Part shown: piece by piece, positions 1 through 48,019 of the stretch
How the letters are laid out: each line of letters starts with the position of its first letter
How positions within the stretch are numbered: position 1 is the stretch's first letter
The notes under the pieces: generated by a model
Seen by the model: only the letters and a program-made list of their open reading frames with translations
The model's database searches: none
What the model was told of the DNA's origin: nothing
Program-made: the position numbers and the translations under genes
Origin: Squalus acanthias
Lineage: Eukaryota
DNA: 64,000 nt
Assembly: GCA_030390025.1 (NCBI GenBank)
Contig: JASTWF010000033.1
Coordinates: forward strand, 2,358,001-2,422,000
Direction of reading: 5' to 3'

Positions 1-838
1 ATTGATTTAAATATTAGCGAAATGTGATGTCATCCACTTCGGAAATAAAAAGGGGCTTTTAGAATACACTCTATACAATGTTAAGCTGGAAACAGTTGAG
101 ATCCAAATAGACTTAAGGGTCCATGTACATATATCATTTAATGGTCATGGACAGGTACAGAAAAGAATGAAAAAGGCTGAATGAAAGGTGATACTTATGT
201 CTATAGGATGACAATATAAGGGGGAGAAATTATGCAACAGCCATACAAAGCACTGGTTAGACCACACCTGGAGTACTGTGTGCAGTTCTGGGCATCACAC
301 CTTAGTATTAGGCTTAAAAAGTGAAGCGTAGATTTACCAGAATGATACACAGAGTCCAAGGGACAAATTACAATGGGAGATTGCACAAACTAGGGATATA
401 TTCCTTGGAATTTAAATGCTGACGTGGTGATTTGATTGAAGTATTCACGATATTAGGTGGAACTGATAGTGTCGATAGAGCGAAGCTATTTCCGATGATT
501 GGCCCGCCTAGGAGTACGGGACACAGACTCAACATTAGTTCCAAGCCTTTCAGGAGAGAAGTTAGGAAAGGCTTCTACATGGAATGAGTGGCAGAAATTT
601 GTAACACACTTCCGCAAACAGCATTTAAATCTGGGTCAGTTGGCAATGTTAAACTTGAGATTGACAGATGTTGGTTAACCAAAGTATTAAGGAATCTGGA
701 GCAAAGGGATGCAAACGGAGTTCGATCGCAGATCCAATTGAACGGCAGAAAGGCTCGAGCGGTTAAAATGCCTTGTTCTGTTGTTATTCTCATTGCTAAA
801 GGATCAGAGCACGAATGCAGAAATGAATATCGTCATTC

Positions 839-843
839 AAAAA
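839..843 (-). terminator. Pol III T5 terminator of the tRNA gene (same position in copies 1-19)
   Basis: Minus strand reads ...GGGCG-CTG-TTTTT, three bases after the discriminator. Confidence 0.85.
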
Positions 844-846
844 CAG

Positions 847-919
847 CGCCCGAACAGGGACTTGAACCCTGGACCCTCAGATTAAAAGTCTGATGCTCTA
901 CCGACTGAGCTATCCGGGC
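847..919 (-). tRNA. tRNA-Lys-TTT: tRNA-Lys(TTT), copy 1
   Basis: Reverse complement GCCCGGATAGCTCAGTCGGTAGAGCATCAGACTTTTAATCTGAGGGTCCAGGGTTCAAGTCCCTGTTCGGGCG. Full cloverleaf, anticodon TTT, intact A and B boxes; matches the conserved vertebrate tRNA-Lys3 sequence. Confidence 0.98.
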
Positions 920-1094
920 ACTTGCTGACTCAATCTCACAAAAGGACTTTCATTGGCTGCAGTGCATCATTGCACCTTCGACAAATTCCATTTTCTTGTC
1001 CATAATCCAGCCTGTGCAGCTCATTTCTCCCACAAATCCAGTTTAACTGCCTCAAACCGGCTTCACGCCAGAAATATTCTCCCTCTCACAAGCG

Positions 1095-1372
1095 ACATGC
1101 TCTTTAGCAGTGGCGTCAAATGTGACAACTGCCGTCCCTCAAATATCTGTATTGGATCTTCAACTTTTCACCGTATTTACGATTGACTCGGATGGAGCAA
1201 TTGAGCGATGTAGATCCAAGTTTGAAGATCGCACTAAGTTAGAAGGTCCGGTCGTAGTGCAAATGGGAACGGGAGCAAACCAAAGGGACAGAGACAGACG
1301 GAGTAAGTCGGCAAACAAAAGGCAAATCGAGTTCACTGTGCCCAAGTGTGACTGCATCCACCTTGCAACATT
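1095..1372 (+). mobile_element. Decayed CR1 LINE RT fragment A (representative; present in every array unit)
   Basis: VPQISVLDLQLFTVFTIDSD...SKFEDRTKLEG...QIEFTVPKCDCIHL resembles CR1 ORF2 VPQGSVLGPQLFTIYINDLD...SKFADDTKLGG...QMEFNVGKCEVIHF. Confidence 0.85.
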
Positions 1373-1429
1373 ATGAGATAGTTCGGAGTATTTTCTAAAT
1401 AATTGGAACCAATTAACTGTTGAGGAGTA

Positions 1430-2575
1430 AAGAGGTTTATGAGCCCCAGTTCACAAATCATTAGTAGCTGGCAGACATGGAGCAAAATACAATTTTATTG
1501 ATCTGGTTAGGAAATTGTTTGCGCGACAGGAGACGCATTTTACGGATAATGATCTGTTACTTTATTTGGCAGGATATGACGAGTGCCGTCCGTGAGGGAT
1601 CTCTTATGTGGCCTCATCCATTCACCGATTTTATTAACGACTTACTTGATGGGATTGAGAGCCAAACATTCAAGTTTAATGATGACAAAATAGATAGGCG
1701 GCATTATAAGCAGTACAGGTGGAAGCAAGAAATTTGCCCAGATATTCATCGATTATGTGAATGGGCAAATCTGTGGCAAATTGATTTAAATATTAGCGAA
1801 ATGTGATGTCATCCACTTCGGAAATAAAAAGGGGCTTTTAGAATACACTCTATACAATGTTAAGCTGGAAACAGTTGAGATCCAAATAGACTTAAGGGTC
1901 CATGTACATATATCATTTAATGGTCATGGACAGGTACAGAAAAGAATGAAAAAGGCTGAATGAAAGGTGATACTTATGTCTATAGGATGACAATATAAGG
2001 GGGAGAAATTATGCAACAGCCATACAAAGCACTGGTTAGACCACACCTGGAGTACTGTGTGCAGTTCTGGGCATCACACCTTAGTATTAGGCTTAAAAAG
2101 TGAAGCGTAGATTTACCAGAATGATACACAGAGTCCAAGGGACAAATTACAATGGGAGATTGCACAAACTAGGGATATATTCCTTGGAATTTAAATGCTG
2201 ACGTGGTGATTTGATTGAAGTATTCACGATATTAGGTGGAACTGATAGTGTCGATAGAGCGAAGCTATTTCCGATGATTGGCCCGCCTAGGAGTACGGGA
2301 CACAGACTCAACATTAGTTCCAAGCCTTTCAGGAGAGAAGTTAGGAAAGGCTTCTACATGCAATGAGTGGCAGAAATTTGTAACACACTTCCGCAAACAG
2401 CATTTAAATCTGGGTCAGTTGGCAATGTTAAACTTGAGATTGACAGATGTTGGTTAACCAAAGTATTAAGGAATCTGGAGCAAAGGGATGCAAACGGAGT
2501 TCGATCGCAGATCCAATTGAACGGCAGAAAGGCTCGAGCGGTTTAAAATGCCTTGTTCTGTTGTTAATCTCATTG
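1430..2575 (+). mobile_element. Decayed CR1 LINE 3' fragment B with RT C-terminus and 3' UTR (representative; present in every unit)
   Basis: WLGNCLRDRR, FINDLLDGIES, LCEWANLWQ, KCDVIHFG, YKALVRPHLEYCVQFW, GDLIEVFTIL across frameshifts; ends in ttgaacggcagaaaggctcgagcgg, similar to the CR1 3' UTR at 63960-64000. Left boundary approximate. Confidence 0.9.
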
Positions 2576-2626
2576 CTAAAGGATCAGAGCACGAATGCAG
2601 AAATGAATATCGTCATTCAAAAACAG

Positions 2627-2699
2627 CGCCCGAACAGGGACTTGAACCCTGGACCCTCAGATTAAAAGTCTGATGCTCTACCGACTGAGCTATCCGGGC
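2627..2699 (-). tRNA. tRNA-Lys-TTT: tRNA-Lys(TTT), copy 2
   Basis: Identical to copy 1. Confidence 0.97.
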
Positions 2700-4403
2700 A
2701 CTTGCTGACTCAATCTCACAAAAGGACTTTCATTGGCTGCAGTGCATCATTGCACCTTCGACAAATTCCATTTTCTTGTCCATAATCCAGCCTGTGCAGC
2801 TCATTTCTCCCACAAATCCAGTTTAACTGCCTCAAACCGGCTTCACGCCAGAAATATTCTCCCTCTCACAAGCGACATGCTCTTTAGCAGTGGCGTCAAA
2901 TGTGACAACTGCCGTCCCTCAAATATCTGTATTGGATCTTCAACTTTTCACCGTATTTACGATTGACTCGGATGGAGCAATTGAGCGATGTAGATCCAAG
3001 TTTGAAGATCGCACTAAGTTAGAAGGTCCGGTCGTAGTGCAAATGGGAACGGGAGCAAACCAAAGGGACAGAGACAGACGGAGTAAGTCGGCAAAACAAA
3101 AGGCAAATCGAGTTCACTGTGCCCAAGTGTGACTGCATCCACCTTGCAACATTATGAGATAGTTCGGAGTATTTTCTAAATAATTGGAACCAATTAACTG
3201 TTGAGGAGTAAAGAGGTTTATGAGCCCCAGTTCACAAATCATTAGTAGCTGGCAGACATGGAGCAAAATACAGTTTTATTGACCTGGTTAGGAAATTGTT
3301 TGCGCGACAGGAGACGCATTTTACGGATAATGATCTGTTACTTTATTTGGCAGGATATGACGAGTGCTGTCCGTGAGGGATCTCTTATGTGGCCTCATCC
3401 ATTCACCGATTTTATTAACGACTTACTTGATGGGATTGAGAGCCAAACATTCAAGTTTAATGATGACAAAATAGATAGGCGGCATTATAAGCAGTACAGG
3501 TGGAAGCAAGAAATTTGCCCAGATATTCATCGATTATGTGAATGGGCAAATCTGTGGCAAATTGATTTAAATATTAGCGAAATGTGATGTCATCCACTTC
3601 GGAAATAAAAAGGGGCTTTTAGAATACACTCTATACAATGTTAAGCTGGAAACAGTTGAGATCCAAATAGACTTAAGGGTCCATGTACATATATCATTTA
3701 ATGGTCATGGACAGGTACAGAAAAGAATGAAAAGGCTGAATGAAAGGTGATACTTATGTCTATAGGATGACAATATAAGGGGGAGAAATTATGCAACAGC
3801 CATACAAAGCACTGGTTAGACCACACCTGGAGTACTGTGTGCAGTTCTGGGCATCACACCTTAGTATTAGGCTTAAAAAGTGAAGCGTAGATTTACCAGA
3901 ATGATACACAGAGTCCAAGGGACAAATTACAATGGGAGATTGCACAAACTAGGGATATATTCCTGGAATTTAAATGCTGACGTGGTGATTTGATTGAAGT
4001 ATTCACGATATTAGGTGGAACTGATAGTGTCGATAGAGCGAAGCTATTTCCGATGATTGGCCCGCCTAGGAGTACGGGACACAGACTCAACATTAGTTCC
4101 AAGCCTTTCAGGAGAGAAGTTAGGAAAGGCTTCTACATGGAATGAGTGGCAGAAATTTGTAACACACTTCCGCAAACAGCATTTAAATCTGGGTCAGTTG
4201 GCAATGTTAAACTTGAGATTGACAGATGTTGGTTAACCAAAGTATTAAGGAATCTGGAGCAAAGGGATGCAAACGGAGTTCGATCGCAGATCCAATTGAA
4301 CGGCAGAAAGGCTCGAGCGGTTAAAATGCCTTGTTCTGTTGTTATTCTCATTGCTAAGGATCAGAGCACGAATGCAGAAATGAATATCGTCATTCAAAAA
4401 CAG

Positions 4404-4476
4404 CGCCCGAACAGGGACTTGAACCCTGGACCCTCAGATTAAAAGTCTGATGCTCTACCGACTGAGCTATCCGGGC
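4404..4476 (-). tRNA. tRNA-Lys-TTT: tRNA-Lys(TTT), copy 3
   Basis: Identical to copy 1. Confidence 0.97.
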
Positions 4477-6181
4477 ACTTGCTGACTCAATCTCACAAAA
4501 GGACTTTCATTGGCTGCAGTGCATCATTGCACCTTCGACAAATTCCATTTTCTTGTCCATAATCCAGCCTGTGCAGCTCATTTCTCCCACAAATCCAGTT
4601 TAACTGCCTCAAACCGGCTTCACGCCAGAAATATTCTCCCTCTCACAAGCGACATGCTCTTTAGCAGTGGCGTCAAATGTGACAACTGCCGTCCCTCAAA
4701 TATCTGTATTGGATCTTCAACTTTTCACCGTATTTACGATTGACTCGGATGGAGCAATTGAGCGATGTAGATCCAAGTTTGAAGATCGCACTAAGTTAGA
4801 AGGTCCGGTCGTAGTGCAAATGGGAACGGGAGCAAACCAAAGGGACAGAGACAGACGGAGTAAGTCGGCAAAACAAAAGGCAAATCGAGTTCACTGTCCC
4901 CAAGTGTGACTGCATCCACCTTGCAACATTATGAGATAGTTCGGAGTATTTGCTAAATAATTGGAACCAATTAACTGTTGAGGAGTAAAGAGGTTTATGA
5001 GCCCCAGTTCACAAATCATTAGTAGCTGGCAGACATGGAGCAAAATACAGTTTTATTGACCTGGTTAGGAAATTGTTTGCGCGACAGGAGACGCATTTTA
5101 CGGATAATGATCTGTAACTTTATTTGGCAGGATATGACGAGTGCCGTCCGTGAGGGATCTCTTATGTGGCCTCATCCATTCACCGATTTTATTAACGACT
5201 TACTTGATGGGATTGAGAGCCAAACATTCAAGTTTAATGATGACAAAATAGATAGGCGGCATTATAAGCAGTACAGGTGGAAGCAAGAAATTTGCCCAGA
5301 TATTCATCGATTATGTGAATGGGCAAATCTGTGGCAAATTGATTGAAATATTAGCGAAATGTGATGTCATCCACTTCGGAAATAAAAAGGGCTTTTAGAA
5401 TACACTCTATACAATGTTAAGCTGGAAACAGTTGAGATCCAAATAGACTTAAGGGTCCATGTACATATATCATTTAATGGTCATGGACAGGTACAGAAAA
5501 GAATGAAAAAGGCTGAATGAAAGGTGATACTTATGTCTATAGGATGACAATATAAGGGGGAGAAATTATGCAACAGCCATACAAAGCACTGGTTAGACCA
5601 CACCTGGAGTACTGTGTGCAGTTCTGGGCATCACACCTTAGTATTAGGCTTAAAAAGTGAAGCGTAGATTTACCAGAATGATACACAGAGTCCAAGGGAC
5701 AAATTACAATGGAGATTGCACAAACTAGGGATATATTCCTTGGAATTTAAATGCTGACGTGGTGATTTGATTGAAGTATTCACGATATTAGGTGGAACTG
5801 ATAGTGTCGATAGAGCGAAGCTATTTCCGATGATTGGCCCGCCTAGGAGTACGGGACACAGACTCAACATTAGTTCCAAGCCTTTCAGGAGAGAAGTTAG
5901 GAAAGGCTTCTACATGGAATGAGTGGCAGAAATTTGTAACACACTTCCGCAAACAGCATTTAAATCTGGGTCAGTTGGCAATGTTAAACTTGAGATTGAC
6001 AGATGTTGGTTAACCAAAGTATTAAGGAATCTGGAGCAAAGAGATGCAAACGGAATTCGATCGCAGATCCAATTGAACGGCAGAAAGGCTCGAGCGGTGA
6101 AAATGCCTTGTTCTGTTGTTATTCTCATTGCTGAAGGATCAGAGCACGAATGCAGAAATGAATATCGTCATTCAAAAACAG

Positions 6182-6253
6182 CGCCCGAACAGGGACTTGA
6201 ACCCTGGACCCTCAGATTAAAAGTCTGATGCTCTACCGACTGAGCTATCCGGC
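6182..6253 (-). tRNA. tRNA-Lys-TTT: tRNA-Lys(TTT), copy 4, 1-nt deletion in acceptor stem
   Basis: tatccggcac instead of tatccgggcac (72 nt); homopolymer indel, possibly a sequencing error. Confidence 0.8.
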
Positions 6254-7954
6254 ACTTGCTGACTCAATCTCACAAAAGGACTTTCATTGGCTGCAGTGCA
6301 TCATTGCACCTTCGACAAATTCCATTTTCTTGTCCATAATCCAGCCTGTGCAGCTCATTTCTCCACAAATCCAGTTTAAACTGCCTCAAACCGGCTTCAC
6401 GCCAGAAATATTCTCCCTCTCACAAGCGACATGCTCTTTAGCAGTGGCGTCAAATGTGACAACTGCCGTCCCTCAAATATCTGTATTGGATCTTCAACTT
6501 TTCACCGTATTTACGATTGACTCGGATGGAGCAATTGAGCGATGTAGATCCAAGTTTGAAGATCGCACTAAGTTAGAAGGTCCGGTCGTAGTGCAAATGG
6601 GAACAAACCAAAGGGACAGAGACAGACGGAGTAAGTCGGCAAAACAAAAGGCAAATCGAGTTCACTGTGCCCAAGTGTGACTGCATCCACCTTGCAACAT
6701 TATGAGATAGTTCGGAGTATTTTCTAAATAATTGGAACCAATTAACTGTAGAGGAGTAAAGAGGTTTATGAGCCCCAGTTCACAAATCATTAGTAGCTGG
6801 CAGACATGGAGCAAAATACAGTTTTATTGTCCTGGTTAGGAAATTGTTTGCGCGACAGGAGACGCATTTTACGGATAATGATCTGTTACTTTATTTGGCA
6901 GGATATGACGAGTGCCGTCCGTGAGGGATCTCTTATGTGGCCTCATCTATTCACCGATTTTATTAACGACTTACTTGATGGGATTGAGAGCCAAATATTC
7001 AAGTTTAATGATGACAAAATACATAGGCGGCATTATAAGCAGTACAGGTGGAAGCAAGAAATTTGCCCAGATATTCATCGATTATGTGAATGGGCAAATC
7101 TGTGGCAAATTGATTTAAATATTAGCGAAATGTGATGTCATCCACTTCGGAAATAAAAAGGGGCTTTTAGAATACACTCTATACAATGTTAAGCTGGAAA
7201 CAGTTGAGATCCAAATAGACTTAAGGGTCCATGTACATATATCATTTAATGGTCATGGACAGGTACAGAAAAGAATGAAAAAGGCTGAATGAAAGGTGAT
7301 ACTTATGTCTATAGGATGACAATATAAGGGGGAGAAATTATGCAACAGCCATACAAAGCACTGGTTAGACCACACCTGGAGTACTGTGTGCAGTTCTGGG
7401 CATCACACCTTAGTATTAGGCTTAAAAAGTGAAGCGTAGATTTACCAGAATGATACACAGAGTCCAAGGGACAAATTACAATGGGAGATTGCACAAACTA
7501 GGGATATATTCCTTGGAATTTAAATGCTGACGTGGTGATTTGATTGAAGTATTCACGATATTAGGTGGAACTGATAGTGTCGATAGAGCGAAGCTATTTC
7601 CGATGATTGGCCCGCCTAGGAGTACGGGACACAGACTCAACATTAGTGCCAAGCCTTCAGGAGAGAAGTTAGGAAAGGCTTCTACATGGAATGAGTGGCA
7701 GAAATTTGGTAACACACTTCCGCAAACAGCATTTAAATCTGGGTCAGTTGGCAATGTTAAACTTGAGATTGACAGATGTTGGTTAACCAAAGTATTAAGG
7801 AATCTGGAGCAAAGGGATGCAAACGGAGTTCGATCGCAGATCCAATTGAACGGCAGAAAGGCTCGAGCGGTTAAAATGCCTTGTTCTGTTGTTATTCTCA
7901 TTGCTGAAGGATCAGAGCACGAATGCAGAAATGAATATCGTCATTCAAAAACAG

Positions 7955-8027
7955 CGCCCGAACAGGGACTTGAACCCTGGACCCTCAGATTAAAAGTCTG
8001 ATGCTCTACCGACTGAGCTATCCGGGC
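7955..8027 (-). tRNA. tRNA-Lys-TTT: tRNA-Lys(TTT), copy 5
   Basis: Identical to copy 1. Confidence 0.97.
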
Positions 8028-9733
8028 ACTTGCTGACTCAATCTCACAAAAGGACTTTCATTGGCTGCTGTGCATCATTGCACCTTCGACAAATTCCATT
8101 TTCTTGTCCATAATCCAGCCTGTGCAGCTCATTTCTCCCACAAATCCAGTTTAACTGCCTCAAACCGGCTTCACGCCAGAAATATTCTCCCTCTCACAAG
8201 CGACATGCTCTTTAGCAGTGGCGTCAAATGTGACAACTGCCGTCCCTCAAATATCTGTATTGGATCTTCAACTTTTCACCGTATTTACGATTGACTCGGA
8301 TGGAGCAATTGAGCGATGTAGATCCAAGTTTGAAGATCGCACTAAGTTAGAAGGTCCGGTCGTAGTGCAAATGGGAACGGGAGCAAACCAAAGGGACAGA
8401 GACAGTCGGAGTAAGTCGGCAAAACAAAAGGCAAATCGAGTTCACTGTGCCCAAGTGTGACTGCATCCACCTTGCAACATTATGAGATAGTTCGGAGTAT
8501 TTTCTAAATAATTGGAACCAATTAACTGTTGAGGAGTAAAGAGGTTTATGAGCCCCAGTTCACAAATCATTAGTAGCTGGCAGACATGGAGCAAAATACA
8601 GTTTTATTGACCTGGTTAGGAAATTGTTTGCGCGACAGGAGACGCATTTTACGGATAATGATCTGTTACTTATTTGGCAGGATATGACGAGTGCCTGTCC
8701 GTGAGGGATCTCTTATGTGGCCTCATCTATTCACCGATTTTATTAACGACTTACTTGATGGGATTGAGAGCCAAACATTCAAGTTTAATGATGACAAAAT
8801 AGATAGGCGGCATTATAAGCAGTACAGGTGGAAGCAAGAAATTTGCCCAGATATTCATCGATTATGTGAATGGGCAAATCTGTGGCAAATTGATTGAAAT
8901 ATTAGCGAAATGTGATGTCATCCACTTCGGAAATAAAAAGGGGCTTTTAGAATACACTCTATACAATGTTAAGCTGGAAACAGTTGAGATCCAAATAGAC
9001 TTAAGGGTCCATGTACATATATCATTTAATGGTCATGGACAGGTACAGAAAAGAATGAAAAAGGCTGAATGAAAGGTGATACTTATGTCTATAGGATGAC
9101 AATATAAGGGGGAGAAATTATGCAACAGCCATACAAAGCACTGGTTAGACCACACCTGGAGTACTGTGTGCAGTTCTGGGCATCACACCTTAGTATTAGG
9201 CTTAAAAAGTGAAGCGTAGATTTACCAGAATGATACACAGAGTCCAAGGGACAAATTACAATGGGAGATTGCACAAACTAGGGATATATTCCTGGAATTT
9301 AAATGCTGACGTGGTGATTTGATTGAAGTATTCACGATATTAGGTGGAACTGATAGTGTCGATAGAGCGAAGCTATTTCCGATGATTGGCCCGCCTAGGA
9401 GTACGGGACACAGACTCAACATTAGTTCCAAGCCTTTCAGGAGAGAAGTTTGGAAAGGCTTCTTCATGGAATGAGTGGCAGAAATTTGTAACACACTTCC
9501 GCAAACAGCATTTAAATCTGGGTCAGTTGGCAATGTTAAATTTGAGATTGACAGATGTTGGTTAACCAAAGTATTAAGGAATCTGGAGCAAAGGGATGCA
9601 AACGGAGTTCGATCGCAGATCCAATTGAACGGCAGAAAGGCTCGAGCGGTTAAAATGCCTTGTTCTGTTGTTATTCTCATTGCTGAAGGATCAGAGCACG
9701 AATGCAGAAATGAATATCGTCATTCAAAAACAG

Positions 9734-9806
9734 CGCCCGAACAGGGACTTGAACCCTGGACCCTCAGATTAAAAGTCTGATGCTCTACCGACTGAGCTAT
9801 CCGGGC
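9734..9806 (-). tRNA. tRNA-Lys-TTT: tRNA-Lys(TTT), copy 6
   Basis: Identical to copy 1. Confidence 0.97.
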
Positions 9807-11512: not shown

Positions 11513-11585
11513 CGCCCGAACAGGGACTTGAACCCTGGACCCTCAGATTAAAAGTCTGATGCTCTACCGACTGAGCTATCCGGGC
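11513..11585 (-). tRNA. tRNA-Lys-TTT: tRNA-Lys(TTT), copy 7
   Basis: Identical to copy 1. Confidence 0.97.
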
Positions 11586-13291: not shown

Positions 13292-13364
13292 CGCCCGAAC
13301 AGGGACTTGAACCCTGGACCCTCAGATTAAAAGTCTGATGCTCTACCGACTGAGCTATCCGGGC
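13292..13364 (-). tRNA. tRNA-Lys-TTT: tRNA-Lys(TTT), copy 8
   Basis: Identical to copy 1. Confidence 0.97.
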
Positions 13365-15073: not shown

Positions 15074-15146
15074 CGCCCGAACAGGGACTTGAACCCTGGA
15101 CCCTCAGATTAAAAGTCTGATGCTCTACCGACTGAGCTATCCGGGC
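15074..15146 (-). tRNA. tRNA-Lys-TTT: tRNA-Lys(TTT), copy 9
   Basis: Identical to copy 1. Confidence 0.97.
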
Positions 15147-20399: not shown

Positions 20400-20472
20400 C
20401 GCCCGAACAGGGACTTGAACCCTGGACCCTCAGATTAAAAGTCTGATGCTCTACCGACTGAGCTATCCGGGC
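20400..20472 (-). tRNA. tRNA-Lys-TTT: tRNA-Lys(TTT), copy 12
   Basis: Identical to copy 1. Confidence 0.97.
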
Positions 20473-22173: not shown

Positions 22174-22246
22174 CGCCCGAACAGGGACTTGAACCCTGGA
22201 CCCTCAGATTAAAAGTCTGATGCTCCACCGACTGAGCTATCCGGGC
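22174..22246 (-). tRNA. tRNA-Lys-TTT: tRNA-Lys(TTT), copy 13, A21G variant
   Basis: tgctccaccg instead of tgctctaccg (22226); D-loop position 21. Confidence 0.9.
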
Positions 22247-23953: not shown

Positions 23954-24026
23954 CGCCCGAACAGGGACTTGAACCCTGGACCCTCAGATTAAAAGTCTGA
24001 TGCTCTACCGACTGAGCTATCCGGGC
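23954..24026 (-). tRNA. tRNA-Lys-TTT: tRNA-Lys(TTT), copy 14
   Basis: Identical to copy 1. Confidence 0.97.
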
Positions 24027-25733
24027 ACTTGCTGACTTAATCTCACAAAAGGACTTTCATTGGCTGCAGTGCATCATTGCACCTTCGACAAATTCCATTT
24101 TCTTGTCCATAATCCAGCCTGTGCAGCTCATTTCTCCCACAAATCCAGTTTAACTGCCTCAAACCGGCTTCAGGCCAGAAATATTCTCCCTCTCACAAGC
24201 GACATGCTCTTTAGCAGTGGCGTCAAATGTGACAACTGCCGTCCCTCAAATATCTGTATTGGATCTTCAACTTTTCACCGTATTTACGATTGACTCGGAT
24301 GGAGCAATTGAGCGATGTAGATCCAAGTTTGAAGATCGCACTAAGTTAGAAGGTCCGGTCGTAGTGCAAATGGGAACGGGAGCAAACCAAAGGGACAGAG
24401 ACAGTCGGAGTAAGTCGGCAAAACAAAAGGCAAAACGAGTTCACTGTGCCCAAGTGTGACTGCATCCACCTTGCAACATTATGAGATAGTTCGGAGTATT
24501 TTCTAAATAATTGGAACCAATTAACTGTTGAGGAGTAAAGAGGTTTATGAGCCCCAGTTCACAAATCATTAGTAGCTGGCAGACATGGAGCAAAATACAG
24601 TTTTATTGACCTGGTTAGGAAATTGTTTGCGCGACAGGAGACGCATTTTACGGATAATGATCTGTTACTTTATTTGGCAGGATATGACGAGTGCCGTCCG
24701 TGAGGGATCTCTTATGTGGCCTCATCTATTCACCGATTTTATTAACGACTTACTTGATGGGATTGAGAGCCAAACATTCAAGTTTAATGATGACAAAATA
24801 GATAGGCGGCATTATAAGCAGTACAGGTGGAAGCAAGAAATTTGCCCAGATATTCATCGATTATGTGAATGGGCAAATCTGTGGCAAATTGATTGAAATA
24901 TTAGCGAAATGTGATGTCATCCACTTCGGAAATAAAAAGGGGCTTTTAGAATACACTCTATACAATGTTAAGCTGGAAACAGTTGAGATCCAAATAGACT
25001 TAAGGGTCCATGTACATATATCATTTAATGGTCATGGACAGGTACAGAAAAGAATGAAAAAGGCTGAATGAAAGGTGATACTTATGTCTATAGGATGACA
25101 ATATAAGGGGGAGAAATTATGCAACAGCCATACAAAGCACTGGTTAGACCACACCTGGAGTACTGTGTGCAGTTCTGGGCATCACACCTTAGTATTAGGC
25201 TTAAAAAGTGAAGCGTAGATTTACCAGAATGATACACAGAGTCCAAGGGACAAATTACAATGGGAGATTGCACAAACTAGGGATATATTCCTTGGAATTT
25301 AAATGCTGACGTGGTGATTTGATTGAAGTATTCACGATATTAGGTGGAACTGATAGTGTCGATAGAGCGAAGCTATTTCCGATGATTGGCCCGCCTAGGA
25401 GTACGGGACACAGACTCAACATTAGTTCCAAGCCTTTCAGGAGAGAAGTTTGGAAAGGCTTCTTCATGGAATGAGTGGCAGAAATTTGTAACACACTTCC
25501 GCAAACAGCATTTAAATCTGGGTCAGTTGGCAATGTTAAACTTGAGATTGACAGATGTTGGTTAACCAAAGTATTAAGGAATCTGGAGCAAAGGGATGCA
25601 AACGGAGTTCGATCGCAGATCCAATTGAACGGCAGAAAGGCTCGAGCGGTTAAAATGCCTTGTTCTGTTGTTATTCTCATTGCTGAAGGATCAGAGCACG
25701 AATGCAGAAATGAATATCGTCATTCAAAAACAG

Positions 25734-25806
25734 CGCCCGAACAGGGACTTGAACCCTGGACCCTCAGATTAAAAGTCTGATGCTCTACCGACTGAGCTAT
25801 CCGGGC
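25734..25806 (-). tRNA. tRNA-Lys-TTT: tRNA-Lys(TTT), copy 15
   Basis: Identical to copy 1. Confidence 0.97.
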
Positions 25807-27513
25807 ACTTGCTGACTCAATCTCACAAAAGGACTTTCATTGGCTGCAGTGCATCATTGCACCTTCGACAAATTCCATTTTCTTGTCCATAATCCAGCCT
25901 GTGCAGCTCATTTCTCCCACAAATCCAGTTTAACTGCCTCAAACCGGCTTCACGCCAGAAATATTCTCCCTCTCACAAGCGACATGCTCTTTAGCAGTGG
26001 CGTCAAATGTGACAACTGCCGTCCCTCAAATATCTGTATTGGATCTTCAACTTTTCACCGTATTTACGATTGACTCGGATGGAGCAATTGAGCGATGTAG
26101 ATCCAAGTTTGAAGATCGCACTAAGTTAGAAGGTCCGGTCGTAGTGCAAATGGGAACGGGAGCAAACCAAAGGGACAGAGACAGTCGGAGTAAGTCGGCA
26201 AAACAAAAGGCAAAACGAGTTCACTGTGCCCAAGTGTGACTGCATCCACCTTGCAACATTATGAGATAGTTCGGAGTATTTTCTAAATAATTGGAAGCTA
26301 TTAACTGTTGAGGAGTAAAGAGGTTTATGAGCCCCTGTTCACAAATCATTAGTAGCTGGCAGACATGGAGCAAAATACAGTTTTATTGACCTGGTTAGGA
26401 AATTGTTTGCGCGACAGGAGACGCATTTTACGGATAATGATCTGTTACTTTATTTGGCAGGATATGACGAGTGCTGTCCGTGAGGGATCTCTTATGTGGC
26501 CTCATCTATTCACCGATTTTATTAACGACTTACTTGATGGGATTGAGAGCCAAACATTCAAGTTTAATGATGACAAAATAGATAGGCGGCATTATAAGCA
26601 GTACAGGTGGAAGCAAGAAATTTGCCCAGATATTCATCGATTATGTGAATGGGCAAATCTGTGGCAAATTGATTTAAATATTAGCGAAATGTGATGTCAT
26701 CCACTTCGGAAATAAAAAAGGGGCTTTTAGAATACACTCTATACAATGTTAAGCTGGAAACAGTTGAGATCCAAATAGACTTAAGGGTCCATGTACATAT
26801 ATCATTTAATGGTCATGGACAGGTACAGAAAAGAATGAAAAAGGCTGAATGAAAGGTGATACTTATGTCTATAGGATGACAATATAAGGGGGAGAAATTA
26901 TGCAACAGCCATACAAAGCACTGGTTAGACCACACCTGGAGTACTGTGTGCAGTTCTGGGCATCACACCTTAGTATTAGGCTTAAAAAGTGAAGCGTAGA
27001 TTTACCAGAATGATACACAGAGTCGAAGGGACAAATTACAATGGGAGATTGCACAAACTAGGGATATATTCCTTGGAATTTAAATGCTGACGTGGTGATT
27101 TGATTGAAGTATTCACGATATTAGGTGGAACTGATAGTGTCGATAGAGCGAAGCTATTTCCGATGATTGGCCCGTCTAGGAGTACGGGACACAGACTCAA
27201 CATTAGTTCCAAGCCTTTCAGGAGAGAAGTTTGGAAAGGCTTCTTCATGGAATGAGTGGCAGAAATTTGTAACACACTTCCGCAAACAGCATTTAAATCT
27301 GGGTCAGTTGGCAATGTTAAAGTTGAGATTGACAGATGTTGGTTAACCAAAGTATTAAGGAATCTGGAGCAAAGGGATGCAAACGGAGTTCGATCGCAGA
27401 TCAATTGAACGGCAGAAAGGCTCGAGCGGTTAAAATGCCTTGTTCTGTTGTTATTCTCATTGCTGAAGGATCAGAGCACGAATGCAGAAATGAATATCGT
27501 CATTCAAAAACAG

Positions 27514-27586
27514 CGCCCGAACAGGGACTTGAACCCTGGACCCTCAGATTAAAAGTCTGATGCTCTACCGACTGAGCTATCCGGGC
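27514..27586 (-). tRNA. tRNA-Lys-TTT: tRNA-Lys(TTT), copy 16
   Basis: Identical to copy 1. Confidence 0.97.
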
Positions 27587-29293
27587 ACTTGCTGACTCAA
27601 TCTCACAAAAGGACTTTCATTGGCTGCAGTGCATCATTGCACCTTCGACAAATTCCATTTTCTTGTCCATAATCCAGCCTGTGCAGCTCATTTCTCCCAC
27701 AAATCCAGTTTAACTGCCTCAAACCGGCTTCACGCCAGAAATATTCTCCCTCTCACAAGCGACATGCTCTTTAGCAGTGGCGTCAAATGTGACAACTGCC
27801 GTCCCTCAAATATCTGTATTAGATCTTCAACTTTTCACCGTATTTACGATTGACTCGGATGGAGCAATTGAGCGATGTAGATCCAAGTTTGAAGATCGCA
27901 CTAAGTTAGAAGGTCCGGTCGTAGTGCAAATGGGAACGGGAGCAAACCAAAGAGACAGAGACAGACGGAGTAAGTCGGCAAAACAAAAGGCAAATCGAGT
28001 TCACTGTGCCCAAGTGTGACTGCATCCACCTTGCAACATTATGAGATAGTTCGGAGTATTTTCTAAATAATTGGAAGCAATTAACTGTTGAGGAGTAAAG
28101 AGGTTTATGAGCCCCAGTTCACAAATCATTAGTAGCTGGCAGACATGGAGCAAAATACAGTTTTATTGACCTGGTTAGGAAATTGCTTGCGCGACAGGAG
28201 ACGCATTTTACGGATAATGATCTGTTACTTTATTTGGCAGGATATGACGAGTGCCGTCCGTGAGGGATCTCTTATGTGGCCTCATCTATTCACCGATTTT
28301 ATTAACGACTTACTTGATGGGATTGAGAGCCAAACATTCAAGTTTAATGATGACAAAATAGATAGGCGGCATTATAAGCAGTACAGGTGGAAGCAAGAAA
28401 TTTGCCCAGATATTCATCGATTATGTGAATGGGCAAATCTGTGGCAAATTGATTTAAATATGAGCGAAATGTGATGTCATCCACTTCGGAAATAAAAAAG
28501 GGCTTTTAGAATACACTCTATACAATGTTAAGCTGGAAACAGTTGAGATCCAAATAGACTTAAGGGTCCATGTACATATATCATTTAATGGTCATGGACA
28601 GGTACACAAAAGAATGAAAAAGGCTGAATGAAAGGTGATACTTATGTCTATAGGATGACAATATAAGGGGGAGAAATTATGCAACAGCCATGCAAAGCAC
28701 TGGTTAGACCACACCTGGAGTACTGTGTGCAGTTCTGGGCATCACACCTTAGTATTCGGCTTAAAAAGTGAAGCGTAGATTTACCAGAATGATACACAGA
28801 GTCCAAGGGATCAATTACAATGGGAGATTGCACAAACTAGGGATATATTCCCTGGAATTTAAATGCTGACGTGGTGATTTGATTGAAGTATTCACGATAT
28901 TAGGTGGAACTGATAGTGTCGATAGAGCGAAGCTATTTCCGATGATTGGCCCGCCTAGGAGTACGGGACACAGACTCAACATTAGTTCCAAGCCTTTCAG
29001 GAGAGAAGTTAGGAAAGGCTTCTACATGGAATGAGTGGCAGAAATTTGTAACACACTTCCGCAAACAGCATTTAAATCTGGGTCAGTTGGCAATGTTAAA
29101 CTTGAGATTGACAGATGTTGGTTAACCAAAGTATTAAGGAATCTGGAGCAAAGGGATGCAAACGGAGTTCGATCGCAGATCCAATTGAACGGCAGAAAGG
29201 CTCAAGCAGTTAAAATGCCTTGTTCTGTTGTTATTCTCATTGCTGAAGGATCAGAGCACGAATGCAGAAATGAATATCGTCATTCAAAAACAG

Positions 29294-29366
29294 CGCCCGA
29301 ACAGGGACTTGAACCCTGGACCCTCAGATTAAAAGTCTGATGCTCTACCGACTGAGCTATCCGGGC
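29294..29366 (-). tRNA. tRNA-Lys-TTT: tRNA-Lys(TTT), copy 17
   Basis: Identical to copy 1; 5' flank differs. Confidence 0.97.
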
Positions 29367-31073
29367 ACTTGCTGGCTGAATCTCACAAAAGGACTTTCAT
29401 TGGCTGCAGTGCATCATTGCACCTTCGGCAAATTCCATTTTCTGGTCCATAATCCAGCCTGTGCAGCTCATTTCTCCCACAAATCCAGTTTAACTGCCTC
29501 AAACCGGCTTCAGGCCAGAAATATTCTCCCTCTCACAAGCGACATGCTCTTTAGCAGTGGCGTCAAATGTGACAACTGCCGTCCCTCAAATATCTGTATT
29601 GGATCTTCAACTTTTCACCGTATTTACGATTGACTCGGATGGAGCAATTGAGCGATGTAGATCCAAGTTTGAAGATCGCACTAAGTTAGAAGGTCCGGTC
29701 GTAGTGCAAATGGGAACGGGAGCAAACCAAAGGGACAGAGACAGACGGAGTAAGTCGGCAAAACAAAAGGCAAATCGAGTTCACTGTGCCCAAGTGTGAC
29801 TGCATCCACCTTGCAACATTATGAGATAGTTCGGAGTATTTTCTAAATAATTGGAAGCAATTAACTGTTGAGGAGTAAAGAGGTTTATGAGCCCCAGTTC
29901 ACAAATCATTAGTAGCTGGCAGACATGGAGCAAAATACAGTTTTATTGACCTGGTTAGGAAATTGTTTGCGCGACAGGAGACGCATTTTACGGATAATGA
30001 TCTGTTACTTTATTTGGCAGGATATGACGAGTGCCGTCCGTGAGGGATCTCTTATGTGGCCTCATCTATTCACCGATTTTATTAACGACTTACTTGATGG
30101 GATTGAGAGCCAAACATTCAAGTTTAATGATGACAAAATAGATAGGCGGCATTATAAGCAGTACAGGTGGAAGCAAGAAATTTGCCCAGATATTCATCGA
30201 TTATGTGAATGGGCAAATCTGTGGCAAATTGATTTAAATATTAGCGAAATGTGATGTCATCCACTTCGGAAATAAAAAAGGGCTTTTAGAATACACTCTA
30301 TACAATGTTAAGCTGGAAACAGTTGAGATCCAAATAGACTTAAGGGTCCATGTACATATATCATTTAATGGTCATGGACAGGTACACAAAAGAATGAAAA
30401 AGGCTGAATGAAAGGTGATACTTATGTCTATAGGATGACAATATAAGGGGGAGAAATTATGCAACAGCCATGCAAAGCACTGGTTAGACCACACCTGGAG
30501 TACTGTGTGCAGTTCTGGGCATCACACCTTAGTATTCGGCTTAAAAAGTGAAGCGTAGATTTACCAGAATGATACACAGAGTCCAAGGGATCAATTACAA
30601 TGGGAGATTGCACAAACTAGGGATATATTCCCTGGAATTTAAATGCTGACGTGGTGATTTGATTGAAGTATTCACGATATTAGGTGGAACTGATAGTGTC
30701 GATAGAGCGAAGCTATTTCCGATGATTGGCCCGCCTAGGAGTACGGGACACAGACTCAACATTAGTTCCAAGCCTTTCAGGAGAGAAGTTTGGAAAGGCT
30801 TCTTCATGGAATGAGTGGCAGAAATTTGTAACACACTTCCGCAAACAGCATTTAAATCTGGGTCAGTTGGCAATGTTAAACTTGAGATTGACAGATGTTG
30901 GTTAACCAAAGTATTAAGGAATCTGGAGCAAAGGGATGCAAACGGAGTTCGATCGCAGATCCAATTGAACGGCAGAAAGGCTCAAGCAGTTAAAATGCCT
31001 TGTTCTGTTGTTATTCTCATTGCTGAAGGATCAGAGCACGAATGCAGAAATGAATATCGTCATTCAAAAACAG

Positions 31074-31146
31074 CGCCCGAACAGGGACTTGAACCCTGGA
31101 CCCTCAGATTAAAAGTCTGATGCTCTACCGACTGAGCTATCCGGGC
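31074..31146 (-). tRNA. tRNA-Lys-TTT: tRNA-Lys(TTT), copy 18
   Basis: Identical to copy 1; 5' flank as copy 17. Confidence 0.97.
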
Positions 31147-32849
31147 ACTTGCTGGCTGAATCTCACAAAAGGACTTTCATTGGCTGCAGTGCATCATTGC
31201 ACCTTCGACAAATTCCATTTTCTTGTCCATAATCCAGCCTGTGCAGCTCATTTCTCCCACAAATCCAGTTTAACTGCCTCAAACCGGCTTCAGGCCAGAA
31301 ATATTCTCCCTCTCACAAGCGACATGCTCTTTAGCAGTGGCGTCAAATGTGACAACTGCCGTCCCTCAAATATCTGTATTGGATCTTCAACTTTTCACCG
31401 TATTTACGATTGACTCGGATGGAGCAATTGAGCGATGTAGATCCAAGTTTGAAGATCGCACTAAGTTAGAAGGTCCGGTCGTAGTGCAAATGGGAACGGG
31501 AGCAAACCAAAGGGACAGAGACAGTCGGAGTAAGTCGGCAAAACAAAAGGCAAAACGAGTTCACTGTGCCCAAGTGTGACTGCATCCACCTTGCAACATT
31601 ATGAGATAGTTCGGAGTATTTTCTAAATAATTGGAACCAATTAACTGTTGAGGAGTAAAGAGGTTTATGAGCCCCAGTTCACAAATCATTAGTAGCTGGC
31701 AGACATGGAGCAAAATACAGTTTTATTGACCTGGTTAGGAAATTGTTTGCGCGACAGGAGACGCATTTTACGGATAATGATCTGTTACTTTATTTGGCAG
31801 GATATGACGAGTGCCGTCCGTGAGGGATCTCTTATGTGGCCTCATCTATTCACCGATTTTATTAACGACTTACTTGATGGGATTGAGAGCCAAACATTCA
31901 AGTTTAATGATGACAAAATAGATAGGCGGCATTATAAGCAGTACAGGTGGAAGCAAGAAATTTGCCCAGATATTCATCGATTATGTGAATGGGCAAATCT
32001 GTGGCAAATTGATTTAAATATTAGCGAAATGTGATGTCATCCACTTCGGAAATAAAAAAGGGCTTTTAGAATACACTCTATACAATGTTAAGCTGGAAAC
32101 AGTTGAGATCCAAATAGACTTAAGGGTCCATGTACATATATCATTTAATGGTCATGGACAGGTACAGAAAAGAATCAAAAATGCTGAATGAAAGGTGATA
32201 CTTATGTCTATAGGATGACAATATAAGAGGGAGAAATTATGCAACAGCCATACAAAGCACTGGTTAGACCACACCTGGAGCACTGTGTGCAGTTCTGGGC
32301 ATCACAACTTCGTATTAGGCTAAAAAAGTGAAGTGTAGATTTACCAGAATGATACACAGAGTCCAGGACAATTACAATGGGAGATTGCACAAACTAGGGA
32401 TATATTCCCTGGAATTTAGAAGCTTACGTGGTGATTTGATTGAAGTATTCACGATATTAAGTGGAACTGATAGTGTCGATAGAGCGAAGCTATTTCCGAT
32501 GATTGGCCCGTCCAGGAGTACGGGACACAGACTCAACATTAGTTCCAAAGCTTTCAGGAGAGAAGTTTGGAAAGGCTTCTACATGGAATGAGTGGCAGAA
32601 ATTTGTAACACACTTCCGCAAACAGCACTTAAATCTGGATCAGTTGGCAATGTTAAACTTGAGATTGACAGATGTTGGTTAACCAAAGTATTAAGGATCT
32701 GGAGCAAAGGGATGCAAACGGAGTTCGATCGCAGATCCAATTGAACGGCAGAAAGGCTCGAGCGGTTAAAATGCCTTGTTCTGTTGTTAATCTCATTGCT
32801 AAAGGATCAGAGCACGAATGCAGAAATGAATATCGTCATTCAAAAACAG

Positions 32850-32922
32850 CGCCTGAACAGGGACTTGAACCCTGGACCCTCAGATTAAAAGTCTGATGCT
32901 CTACCGACTGAGCTATCCGGGC
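32850..32922 (-). tRNA. tRNA-Lys-TTT: tRNA-Lys(TTT), copy 19, G69A variant (C4:A69 mismatch)
   Basis: gcctgaac instead of gcccgaac at 32854, a CpG transition. Confidence 0.85.
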
Positions 32923-34634
32923 ACTTGCTGACTCAATCTCACAAAAGGACTTTCATTGGCTGCAGTGCATCATTGCACCTTCGACAAATTCCATTTTCTT
33001 GTCCATAATCCAGCCTGTGCAGCTCATTTCTCCCACAAATCCAGTTTAACTGCCTCAAACCGGCTTCAGGCCAGAAATATTCTCCCTCTCACAAGCGACA
33101 TGCTCTTTAGCAGTGGCGTCAAATGTGACAACTGCCGTCCCTCAAATATCTGTATTGGATCTTCAACTTTTCACCGTATTTACGATTGACTCGGATGGAG
33201 CAATTGAGCGATGTAGATCCAAGTTTGAAGATCGCACTAAGTTAGAAGGTCCGGTCGTAGTGCAAATGGGAACGGGAGCAAACCAAAGGGACAGAGACAG
33301 TCGGAGTAAGTCGGCAAAACAAAAGGCAAAACGAGTTCACTGTGCCCAAGTGTGACTGCATCCACCTTGCAACATTATGAGATAGTTCGGAGTATTTTCT
33401 AAATAATTGGAACCAATTAACTGTTGAGGAGTAAAGAGGTTTATGAGCCCCAGTTCACAAATCATTAGTAGCTGGCAGACATGGAGCAAAATACAGTTTT
33501 ATTGACCTGGTTAGGAAATTGTTTGCGCGACAGGAGACGCAGTTTTCGGATAATGATCTGTTACTTTATTTGGCAGGATATGACGAGTGCCGTCCGTGAC
33601 GGATCTCTTATGTGGCCTCATCTATTCACCGATTTTATTAACGACTTACTTGATGGGATTGAGAGCCAAACATTCAAGTTTAATGATGACAAAATAGATA
33701 GGCGGCATTATAAGCAGTACAGGTGGAAGCAAGAAATTTGCCCAGATATTCATAGATTATGTGAATGGGCAAATCTGTGGCAAATTGATTTAAATATTAG
33801 CGAAGTGTGATGTCATCCACTTCGGAACTAAAAAGGGGCGTTTAGAATACACTGTATACAATGTTAAGCTGGAAACAGTTGAGATCCAAATAGACTTAAG
33901 GGTGCATGTACATATATCATTTAATGGTCATGGACAGGTACAGAAAAGAATGAAAAAGGCTGAATGAAAGGTGATACTTATGTCTATAGGATGACAATAT
34001 AAGGGGGAGAGATTATGCAACAGCCATACAAAGCACTGGTTAGACCACACCTGGAGTACTGTGTGCAGTTCTGGGCATCACAGCTTAGGGGGTAATATTA
34101 GGCTTAAAAAGTGAAGCGCAGATTTACCAGAATGATACACAGAGTCCAAGGGACAAATTACAATGGGAGCTTGCAGAAACTAAGGATATATTATTTGGAA
34201 TTTAGAAGCTTACGTGATTTGATTGAAGTATTCACGATATTAAGTGGAACTGATAGTGTCGATAGAGCGAATCTATTTCCGATGATCGGCCCGTCTTGGA
34301 GTACGGGACACAGACTCAACATTAGTTCCAAGCCTTTCAGGAGATAAGTTAGGAAAGGCTTCTGCATGGAATGGGTGGCAGAAATTTGTAACACACTTCC
34401 GCAAAAAGCACTTAAAGCTGGGTCAATTGGCAATGTTAAACTTGAGATTGATAGATGTTGGTTATCCAAAGATATTGATGGATCTGGAGCAAAGGGATGC
34501 AAACGGAGTTCGATCACAGATCTAATTGAACGGCAGAAAGGCCCGAGCGTTTAAAAGGCCCGGTCTTGTTGTTATTCTCATTGCTAAAGGATCAGAGCAC
34601 GAATGCAGAAATGAATATCGTGATTTAAGTGCAG

Positions 34635-34707
34635 CGCCCGACCAGGGACTTGAACCCTGGACTCTCAGATTACAAGTCTGTTTTTCTCCCGACTGATTTA
34701 TCCGGGC
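34635..34707 (-). pseudogene. tRNA-Lys-derived pseudogene, copy 20 (anticodon TGT)
   Basis: GCCCGGATAAATCAGTCGGGAGAAAAACAGACTTGTAATCTGAGAGTCCAGGGTTCAAGTCCCTGGTCGGGCG: D stem and A box damaged, T5 terminator lost, B box intact. Confidence 0.9.
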
Positions 34708-34932
34708 TCTTGCTGACTGAACCTCACAAAAGGACTTTCATTGGCTGCAGTGCATCATTGCACCTTCTACAATTTCCATTTTCCTGTCCATAATCCAGCC
34801 TGTACAGCTCATTTCTCCCACAAATCCAGACTGACTGCCTCAAACCGGCTTCACGTCAGAAATATTCTCCCTCTCACAACCGACATGCTCTTTATCATTG
34901 GCGTCAGATGTGACAACTGCCGTCCCTCAAAT

Positions 34933-35374: not shown

Positions 35375-35409
<35 letters not shown>

Positions 35410-48001: not shown

Positions 48002-48019
48002 AGAAAATTTAAAGGGGCC

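Follow-up and report, generated by a model that had tools for sequence, protein, structure and literature searches.

A stretch of 64,000 nucleotides of Squalus acanthias DNA (the window) carries a tRNA-Lys(TTT) gene repeated many times over, which raises the question of whether these genes form a real tandem array and, if so, what has kept them intact. Tandem tRNA arrays are already known, and the Squalus acanthias array is not a new system. In sharks and rays, which have very many tRNA loci, it is debated whether these are functional, maternal or junk, and the present array is useful as a clean test case: each unit holds a single gene, dispersed LINE copies allow changes in its neutral LINE spacer to be polarised, and an old edge has been left stranded.

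The array and its tRNA genes

ARAGORN identified 20 tRNA genes in the window, all on the minus strand, from 846-919 through to 34634-34707, and the same 20 were recovered by Rfam at the gathering score, at which no RNA family besides tRNA was matched anywhere in the window. The 5' ends of the genes lie 1767-1785 bp apart. Whole units align to the reference unit with 96.2-99.6% identity over ~1780 bp (BLAST, E=0), far beyond chance, and the pairwise difference among interior units is 0.1-1.6%; the locus therefore has the near-identical, kilobase-scale, head-to-tail units, each bearing an intact tRNA gene, that characterise a tandem tDNA array. Since base 1 of the window falls mid-unit, the array extends leftwards out of the window, whereas the rightmost match to the repeat unit stops at 34936. 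The array adjoins satellite- and retroelement-rich DNA.

Sixteen of the genes are identical over 73 nt, each scoring 74.1 bits on RF00005 against a gathering score of 29. With all 21 stem pairs and all 13 invariant positions present in the intact gene, these 16 copies are, by cloverleaf and invariant bases, canonical eukaryotic type 2 Pol III tRNA genes. Three bases past the gene, a CTG trailer gives way to a run of five T residues (T5) in 19 of the 20 copies, which thus possess the run of at least four T residues just downstream that terminates type 2 tRNA genes; it is lost in copy 20. The remaining four genes are altered to differing degrees (Table 1). The deletion in copy 4 is possibly a read error, as its unit has three one-base deletions, all within base runs. 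Copy 20 retains 17 of 21 stem pairs and is not a canonical tRNA gene. Taken together, this is a real tandem array of a canonical, terminator-bearing tRNA-Lys(TTT) gene.

Table 1. Coordinates of the array and its components within the window
Feature	Position	Strand	Remarks
Head-to-tail array, one tRNA gene per unit	1..34936	-	~19.6 units x 1.78 kb; left end open at window edge
First tRNA-Lys(TTT) copy	847..919	-	Among 16 identical; 21/21 pairs, 13/13 invariants
tRNA copy 4	6182..6253	-	One base missing in acceptor-stem C run
tRNA copy 13	22174..22246	-	Single change, at invariant position 21
Representative unit	24027-25806		
Spacer fragment A, dead LINE reverse-transcriptase (RT) remnant	24207..24571	+	~46% identity to two dispersed LINE copies in window
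Spacer fragment B, dead LINE remnant, RT region to 3' end	24572..25678	+	50-54% identity to dispersed copies
3-nt trailer and T5 Pol III terminator, representative unit	25726..25733	-	Downstream of 19/20 genes
tRNA-Lys(TTT) gene, representative unit	25734..25806	-	
Non-LINE 5' flank	25807..25986	-	~180 bp, same place in every unit
tRNA copy 19	32850..32922	-	Single change at position 69, one acceptor-stem pair broken
Old edge segment	34179..34936		~7-12% diverged from interior units; ancestral LINE bases kept
tRNA copy 20, pseudogene	34635..34707	-	9/73 changes, anticodon TGT, D-stem broken, terminator lost, 36.1 bits

The original prediction, of 20 same-orientation copies at ~1.78 kb spacing, 16 of them identical and 19 with the T5 terminator, in an array continuing past the left edge, is borne out on all these points. 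It had placed the right end at 34932, which is correct as to the array ending there but four bases short of the last unit match, and had described an array of tRNA-Lys(TTT) only, which holds for 19 copies but not for copy 20 with its altered anticodon. The term 'rDNA-like' suits the layout; however, rDNA itself was rejected as an identity, the Rfam matches being to tRNA alone with no rRNA gene. The LINE-derived spacer and the edge preserving an older state of the unit had both been overlooked.

Composition of the spacer

Approximately 83% of each unit consists of two dead LINE (CR1-type) fragments in antisense orientation to the tRNA. Fragment B, which by its motifs would belong to the CR1 clade, is riddled with stops and frameshifts and stops ~50 bp short of the tRNA terminator, the two facing tail to tail. 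On the LINE strand of the unit the longest stop-free stretch is 106 codons, and six plus-strand spacer translations returned zero matches in Pfam; among six translations of the two dispersed LINE copies, RVT_1 was found in four, two of them above the curated cut-off. A 54-aa piece submitted to the ESM Atlas gave weak matches, to unnamed clusters only. In LINE coordinates, fragments A and B overlap, and the A/B junction aligns to both; an origin of the unit via recombination between two flanking LINEs was considered and set aside, as it cannot be shown at ~50% identity. A second, hidden RNA in the spacer was likewise rejected: a search of Rfam with E values allowed up to 10 gave two matches, each falling far short of the gathering score. 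The CpG observed/expected ratio of the spacer (0.65-0.83) overlaps that of the dispersed elements (0.39-0.81). Within 60 nt of the gene, the 5' flank contains a CCAAT word in every one of the 20 copies and, in 16 of them, a TGA(G/C)TCA word; both are candidate elements.

Turnover of units and the old right edge

No identical pair was found when the 19 whole units were compared. Neighbouring units differ on average at 4.2 of 21 shared variable columns, as opposed to 7.25 when the order of units is shuffled, with none of 20,000 shuffles giving a value as low, and 62 of 210 column pairs fail the four-gamete test. One-base indels fall mostly within base runs (19 of 25), and most interior substitution alleles (53 of 75) occur as singletons.

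The right edge is ~8% diverged overall and carries ancestral LINE bases where the interior is derived. Units 19 and 20 agree with each other but not with the interior at six LINE-B sites, and at five of these their base matches both dispersed LINE copies; of the five derived bases, four occur in all 17 interior units and one in 16 of the 17. Among 19 informative sites there are 10 at which the edge agrees with both outgroups, compared with the 14-19% that an ancestral interior would predict (p≤0.001), the outgroups used for polarising being dispersed LINE copies only 50-54% identical to the spacer. With either outgroup taken singly, the edge-versus-interior polarity is 9:10 and 14:18, ratios that are informative once set against the chance rate. 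Variants that are shared by neighbours and recombine, together with derived states fixed across interior units, are the marks of concerted evolution, and the array has evidently turned over, with derived spacer bases filling the interior while the edge holds older ones. Arrays of the 5S rDNA type, in which one Pol III gene is joined to a spacer, undergo concerted evolution with divergent edge units. The Squalus array resembles these in its layout and in its signs of concerted evolution, but it has no rRNA gene and its gene has a type-2 internal promoter.

Dating of the edge depends on the pedigree mutation rate of 7e-10 per generation (CI 1.4-14.1e-10; PMC10587355). At that rate, ~4% divergence per lineage corresponds by hand arithmetic to at least ~3e7 generations, which looks too old taken literally; the array is old, and nothing finer is claimed.

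Selection, proposed function and competing explanations

The old edge provides a spacer standard against which changes in the tRNA can be set. Its part of LINE-B differs from the interior at 33 of 397 bases, and the 16 differences that could be polarised divide equally into eight interior-derived and eight edge-derived. Conversely, all nine tRNA differences read as edge-derived (0:9, Fisher p=0.022 versus the spacer), and no interior change is observed in the 73-bp tRNA where 3.0 are expected (p=0.048), although the contrast relies on a single edge copy in an array that was noticed because its tRNAs are intact. Restricting the comparison to the seven tRNA changes that break a pair or alter the anticodon gives p=0.052. 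These data lend modest support to the tRNA having been maintained by selection, and they speak for constraint on the lineage leading to the interior unit but do not extend to every amplified copy. Among the 17 interior units the deficit of tRNA variant alleles is not significant (1 against 3.1 expected, p=0.19), nor is the decay of the edge tRNA significantly faster than that of the sequence around it (p=0.18). Transcription-associated mutagenesis has been discussed as a possible mark of transcription (PMC6130373, in the part bearing on this point). The first 20 bp of the 5' flank hold four variant alleles where 0.84 are expected (p=0.011), and 19 of 75 alleles fall in its first 180 bp; nine of these form one cluster in one unit, however, and with clusters collapsed the comparison becomes 8 against 33 (p=0.06), so that this signal was set aside.

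Several known systems are similar in part. The human 1q23.3 tRNA repeat, as described in the relevant sections of PMC4041453, also has head-to-tail multi-kb units with intact tRNA genes, ~98% inter-unit identity and a retroelement fragment in each unit. That unit, however, is 7.3 kb with 64% GC and five tRNA genes, is bound by CTCF and varies in copy number, whereas the Squalus unit is 1.78 kb with 40-45% GC, one gene and ~83% dead LINE; at a CpG observed/expected ratio of 0.65 and one tRNA per unit, it is not a GC-rich, CpG-island, multi-isotype unit of the human type. The original prediction held that vertebrate arrays usually carry several isotypes per unit, and in this it overstated the rarity of single-isotype arrays, since plants are reported to have them: 27 tRNA-Pro genes in Arabidopsis and 28 tRNA-Ile genes in maize (as cited in PMC12652284). 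As in those clusters, as summarised there, one isotype is tandemly repeated some 20-30 times; the Squalus array differs in being a vertebrate Lys(TTT) array whose spacer derives from LINEs and whose old edge has been preserved. Zebrafish clusters, located mainly on chromosome 4, similarly comprise many identical tRNA genes in retroelement-rich, repetitive fish DNA (passages of PMC11417395 and PMC11075544). According to the former, zebrafish egg tRNAs derive from repetitive multicopy loci, and the data presented there and in part in bioRxiv 10.1101/869651 favour a maternal role for repeat-encoded tRNAs. Close tRNA pairs in zebrafish are, as PMC2888827 describes them, mostly of mixed isotype, whereas the Squalus array is single-isotype; in zebrafish, egg expression has been measured. 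Within the same animal group, Squalomix (bioRxiv 10.1101/2025.06.08.657570) reports an abundance of clustered tRNA loci in sharks and rays, with more than 300 on red stingray chromosome 28; its accessible text gives counts and positions rather than unit anatomy, homogenisation or selection.

The explanation that we favour, and hold to be probable though by no means assured, is that of a uniform tandem array of intact tRNA-Lys genes on a dead-LINE unit, kept by unequal crossing-over and gene conversion and transcribed by Pol III in at least one cell type, most likely oocytes. In each unit a tRNA-Lys(TTT) gene of the ordinary kind has a short 5' flank on one side and the two LINE fragments, long dead, on the other, and it is this entire segment that is repeated. 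The differences between units, their neighbour-shared and recombining variants, and the derived interior and older edge would reflect recombination between units over a long period, leaving at least three time layers (0.5%, 1-2% and ~8%). Along the interior lineage, selection may have purged changes to the tRNA and terminator, while the stranded edge copy decayed. Each gene would be transcribed separately, from internal A and B boxes to T5, the product being a tRNA of 73 nt followed by a CUG-U(n) trailer, with the spacer as a passenger. By analogy with zebrafish, the array might be opened in growing oocytes and closed in most somatic cells. It is likely that the array supplies extra lysine tRNA, possibly in eggs. 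The roles put forward in the original prediction, a dosage amplifier that might serve oocyte stockpiling and would probably vary in copy number, are candidates on which the zebrafish data point both ways, with a maternal role favoured on one side and, on the other, methylated embryonic clusters and abundance unrelated to copy number. A bolder version, namely that the array is an ancient, selected maternal source of tRNA-Lys(UUU) alone, tandem in several cartilaginous fishes and switched on in oocytes, can be entertained only tentatively. If true, the division seen in zebrafish, with maternal tRNAs encoded in repeats and somatic ones at solitary loci, would date back to the common ancestor of jawed vertebrates, and the frozen edge unit and LINE spacer would constitute a built-in neutral clock for selection on tRNA dosage. 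Trailer and leader should tag array transcripts and, together with the single gene per unit, the spacer and the old edge, make both expression (oocyte versus soma) and selection directly measurable.

Alternatively, the locus could be a largely silent macrosatellite, in which a functional single locus was amplified neutrally, its copies are methylated and little tRNA is made, the genes appearing intact only through a constrained founder and recent last expansions. We think this doubtful, though deserving of serious attention. Heavy germ-line methylation is expected to produce an excess of CpG transitions, and the variants show none (1.5-fold in the interior, p=0.52; 1.0-fold at the edge), albeit with small counts and no same-genome control. 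The layers of edge divergence also imply a long-lived array, in which ~4% change became fixed in the spacer and the interior tRNA and T5 nevertheless remained intact. On the other hand, the non-significant variant deficit among interior units and the lack of a firm flank-mutation signal are what silent copies would give; two of the 19 Lys copies have an altered invariant or paired position and another has a deletion; and, in the zebrafish embryo data of PMC11574265 that concern clusters, clustered tRNA genes are near-completely methylated and inaccessible, with copy number unrelated to abundance. An array whose main role is to act as a chromatin boundary or to organise the nucleus, through binding of TFIIIC or CTCF and with tRNA output secondary, would fit a multi-kb tDNA repeat beside satellite- and retroelement-rich DNA, and such a role has been argued for the human 1q23.3 repeat in the pertinent part of PMC4041453. 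It is nonetheless improbable here, as the A and B boxes suffice for a binding platform, whereas the interior retains the whole cloverleaf, anticodon and terminator, and the unit is far from the 64% GC of the human locus.

That the assembler expanded one or a few real copies is very improbable, given that no two units are identical and that variants are common to neighbours. The indels in base runs and the singleton alleles do point to some read error, but random error cannot produce the ordering of neighbours, the four-gamete failures, or an edge gradient with alleles matching outgroup LINEs. SINEs are built from just such a pairing of a tRNA with a LINE 3' end, and their hallmark is a degenerate tRNA head running into a same-strand LINE-type tail. 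A tRNA-derived SINE, or satellite derived from one, is contradicted by the anatomy of the unit, in which a full-score, intact tRNA gene is ended by T5 after 3 nt and the strand opposite to it carries the LINE remnants. Non-LTR retrotransposons that target tRNA arrays (Dewa/Tx1 type) have an intact or young endonuclease-RT frame at a fixed site in such arrays, and were rejected on the basis of the 106-codon longest frame, the absence of Pfam matches in the six spacer translations and the 46-54% identity to dispersed copies. Tandem stacking of either kind of element is therefore extremely improbable as a source of the array, even though tRNA-derived tandem repeats are known in amphibians (PMC12054243).

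Related DNA was also found in sequencing runs, which are contig sets and uninformative on RNA strand or level. Leaving out as evidence eight rows with shares of 0.05-0.19 and four at 0.00, 12 of the 24 listed runs contain 26-59% of the 31-mers sampled from the unit; these runs are filed under four organism labels or, in three rows, with no label. In this independent DNA the tRNA by itself would yield ~2.5%. The shares of 0.26-0.34 under other organism labels would equate to ~96% identity if spread evenly, as estimated from unaligned word sharing.

The tRNA array and its repeat unit

ARAGORN predicted 20 tRNA genes, all minus-strand, between positions 846 and 34707 of the window, 19 of them assigned to Lys(TTT) and the last to Thr(TGT), and Rfam returned the same 20 matches, and no other RNA, over the whole 64 kb. 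Sixteen of the genes are identical. Copy 4 has lost one base within a C run, a single substitution distinguishes each of copies 13 and 19, and nine are present in copy 20, which has also lost the terminator; the CTG trailer and T5 follow the other 19 genes. The units are spaced by 1767–1785 bp and match a reference unit at 96.2–99.6% when whole, with the window starting mid-unit and unit homology ending at 34936. The original prediction of 20 copies, 16 identical and 19 with T5, is borne out by ARAGORN, Rfam and the unit comparison.

The tRNA accounts for 4% of the unit. The ∼180 bp on its 5' side are not LINE-like, and the subsequent ∼1470 bp comprise two non-LTR retrotransposon remnants, fragments A and B, which are antisense to the tRNA, the LINE 3' end in fragment B lying ∼50 bp from the tRNA terminator. 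The fragments share 46–54% identity with two dispersed LINE copies of the window, the translations of which match Pfam RVT_1 (E = 4e-15 and 8e-12). A 112-residue piece of fragment B, translated with X at two stops, gave one match from 45 candidates: at E = 2e-23 and 50% identity it aligned with a Mobula birostris protein of 843 residues that has RVT_1 and endonuclease domains, which points to a cartilaginous fish as the likely host. By its motifs the spacer LINE probably belongs to the CR1 clade. The LINE strand has no stop-free stretch longer than 106 codons, none of the six plus-strand spacer translations tried matched Pfam, and an Rfam scan of one spacer at relaxed stringency gave only two matches, both far under threshold. 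Since the LINE remnants are dead, with neither a Pfam match nor a second RNA, the unit is an ordinary repeat-filled piece of the genome that contains a single tRNA gene and was amplified once its LINEs had died. A SINE identity was rejected because the tRNA is complete, terminates immediately and faces the LINE tail. Sequence at the junction of the fragments (unit ∼525–550, window ∼24550–24575) can be aligned either as the final stretch of A or as the opening stretch of B, possibly reflecting a microhomology join. A 141-codon ATG-started frame on the spacer minus strand (window 24031–25730), antisense to the remnants, is probably due to chance.

Features of the repeat unit and of the window
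Feature	Position	Strand	Remarks
Fragment A	unit 181-545	+	LINE remnant
Fragment B	unit about 546-1652	+	LINE remnant, includes the element's 3' end
LTR retrotransposon	40336-43189		194-bp LTRs, 99% identical
AT-rich 54-bp satellite	36286-38052 and 45349-48003		18-bp sub-period, about 75% alike
Decayed LINE, different family	about 51120-53740	+	amid long TCTG-type microsatellite tracts
18-bp tandem repeat	61300-61853		31 copies
84-bp tandem repeat	62762-63397		7.6 copies, 92% alike

Turnover of the units and possible selection on the tRNA

Some read error is likely in the array sequence, since 19 of 25 one-base indels lie in base runs and, of the 75 substitution alleles seen across the 17 interior units, 53 occur only once; the copy 4 deletion may be such an error. 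Each of the 19 whole units differs from all the others. Across 21 shared variable columns, neighbouring units show an average of 4.2 differences as opposed to 7.25 in random order, a value reached by none of 20,000 shuffled orders, and all four gametes occur in 62 of 210 column pairs. In 12 of the 24 listed public runs (under four organism labels, plus three rows with no label), 26–59% of the unit's sampled 31-mers were present, compared to ∼2.5% expected from the tRNA alone; 93% of the representative unit's words recur in the window's other units. The remaining 12 rows, eight with 5–19% of the 31-mers and four with none, were set aside. These runs indicate that the spacer sequence exists elsewhere, word shares saying nothing of its tandem state there. 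A cluster of nine substitutions in 14 bp, confined to unit 5 (window 6365–6378, 112–125 bp upstream of copy 4), is perhaps a micro-inversion, a template switch or a local read error.

Divergence is 0.1–1.6% for interior units, about 2% for unit 19 and about 4% for unit 20, in which 15 sites differ in the first 1252 bases and 33 in the next 397, a distribution that points to a crossover near 34179, with homogenised sequence on one side and the old edge on the other. Units 19 and 20 have the same base, different from that of the interior, at six fragment B sites, and both dispersed LINEs agree with them at five; the derived base is carried there by all 17 interior units at four sites and by 16 at the fifth. 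Unit 20 retains a further seven bases lost from the interior. Among the informative sites of fragment B, the edge agrees with both outgroup LINEs at 10 of 19 for unit 20 and at 6 of 11 for unit 19, as opposed to 14–19% expected were the interior ancestral (p from 7e-5 to 0.01). Derived bases in the interior and outgroup bases at the edge argue that new mutations have spread through the interior, i.e. that units turn over via concerted evolution or repeated re-expansion, presumably by unequal crossing-over and conversion. The array is a real, old and homogenised single-gene tRNA array, and we place high confidence in this structural and evolutionary part of the reading.

Polarised differences in the old part of fragment B comprise eight interior-derived and eight edge-derived, whereas all nine tRNA differences read as edge-derived (p = 0.022 by Fisher's test, and 0.052 when restricted to the seven clear ones); six are at paired positions, with the pair broken in the edge copy, one changes the anticodon and two are unpaired and less certain. 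No interior change is fixed in the 73-bp tRNA against 3.0 expected (p = 0.048). This contrast, drawn from one edge copy and distant outgroups and possibly subject to ascertainment, weakly suggests that the tRNA has been maintained by selection along the interior lineage, and could also arise through conversion from identical tRNA genes elsewhere. The deficit of tRNA variants in interior units is not significant (1 against 3.1 expected, p = 0.19), which counts against current selection. A flank-mutation signal of transcription was dropped, with p = 0.06 after collapsing clustered changes, and CpG decay in the array was uninformative.

Potential for transcription and known relatives

The tRNA gene structure is intact. 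Each gene would be transcribed singly, from internal A and B boxes to T5, and the array would lift the ceiling on tRNA-Lys(UUU) synthesis wherever it is open. Post hoc inspection of the 60 bp upstream found a CCAAT word in all 20 copies and TGA(G/C)TCA, which we take to be AP-1-like, in 16 of 20, and no TATA box; a T4 run ∼21–24 bp upstream of each tRNA, also noted post hoc, would stop read-through.

Activity in a particular tissue is suggested by analogy. Zebrafish egg isodecoders are multicopy and lie in repetitive regions, late isodecoders being solitary (PMC11417395; bioRxiv 10.1101/869651), a division proposed also in PMC11075544. Another report, however, describes clustered tRNA genes in zebrafish embryos as almost fully methylated, and tRNA copy number and abundance as unrelated (PMC11574265). 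The main rival, that the array is a silent macrosatellite, is considered unlikely, and the reading as a whole, of a homogenised array with transcribed genes and oocytes as the likeliest place, is moderately probable; the oocyte step taken by itself is tentative. That the array is an ancient maternal tRNA-Lys supply common to cartilaginous fishes is doubtful.

The array adds to a known kind, tandem tRNA arrays. The human 1q23.3 repeat differs in its units, which are GC-rich, 7.3 kb long, carry five tRNA genes and occur in 9–43 copies (PMC4041453), and plant runs of one isotype, 27 tRNA-Pro genes in Arabidopsis and 28 tRNA-Ile in maize, are cited in PMC12652284. The original remark that vertebrate units of one isotype are less common finds backing in a survey in which close tRNA pairs of zebrafish and Xenopus are mostly mixed, although its 1-kb cut-off would leave this array uncounted (PMC2888827). 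Clustered tRNA loci are abundant in sharks and rays (bioRxiv 10.1101/2025.06.08.657570), and tRNA-like tandem repeats are present in amphibians (PMC12054243). A literature search on tandem tRNA arrays, covering few subscription papers, gave no description of a single-isotype tRNA-Lys array in a cartilaginous fish, although preprint supplements may list such clusters.

Surroundings of the array

The array ends abruptly within fragment A. The 1.35 kb beyond it (34937–36285) has no match elsewhere within the window, and carries near 35312 a primer-binding-site-like word, presumably resembling that for initiator-Met, followed by a TC microsatellite. Within the first satellite block, about 600 bp are duplicated. 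The LTR retrotransposon, which by motifs read by eye is probably of Gypsy type, apparently lacks its protease–RT middle; it is hosted by a minus-strand LINE copy (about 38076–40335, resuming at 43190), and its flanking 5-mers agree at four of five positions.
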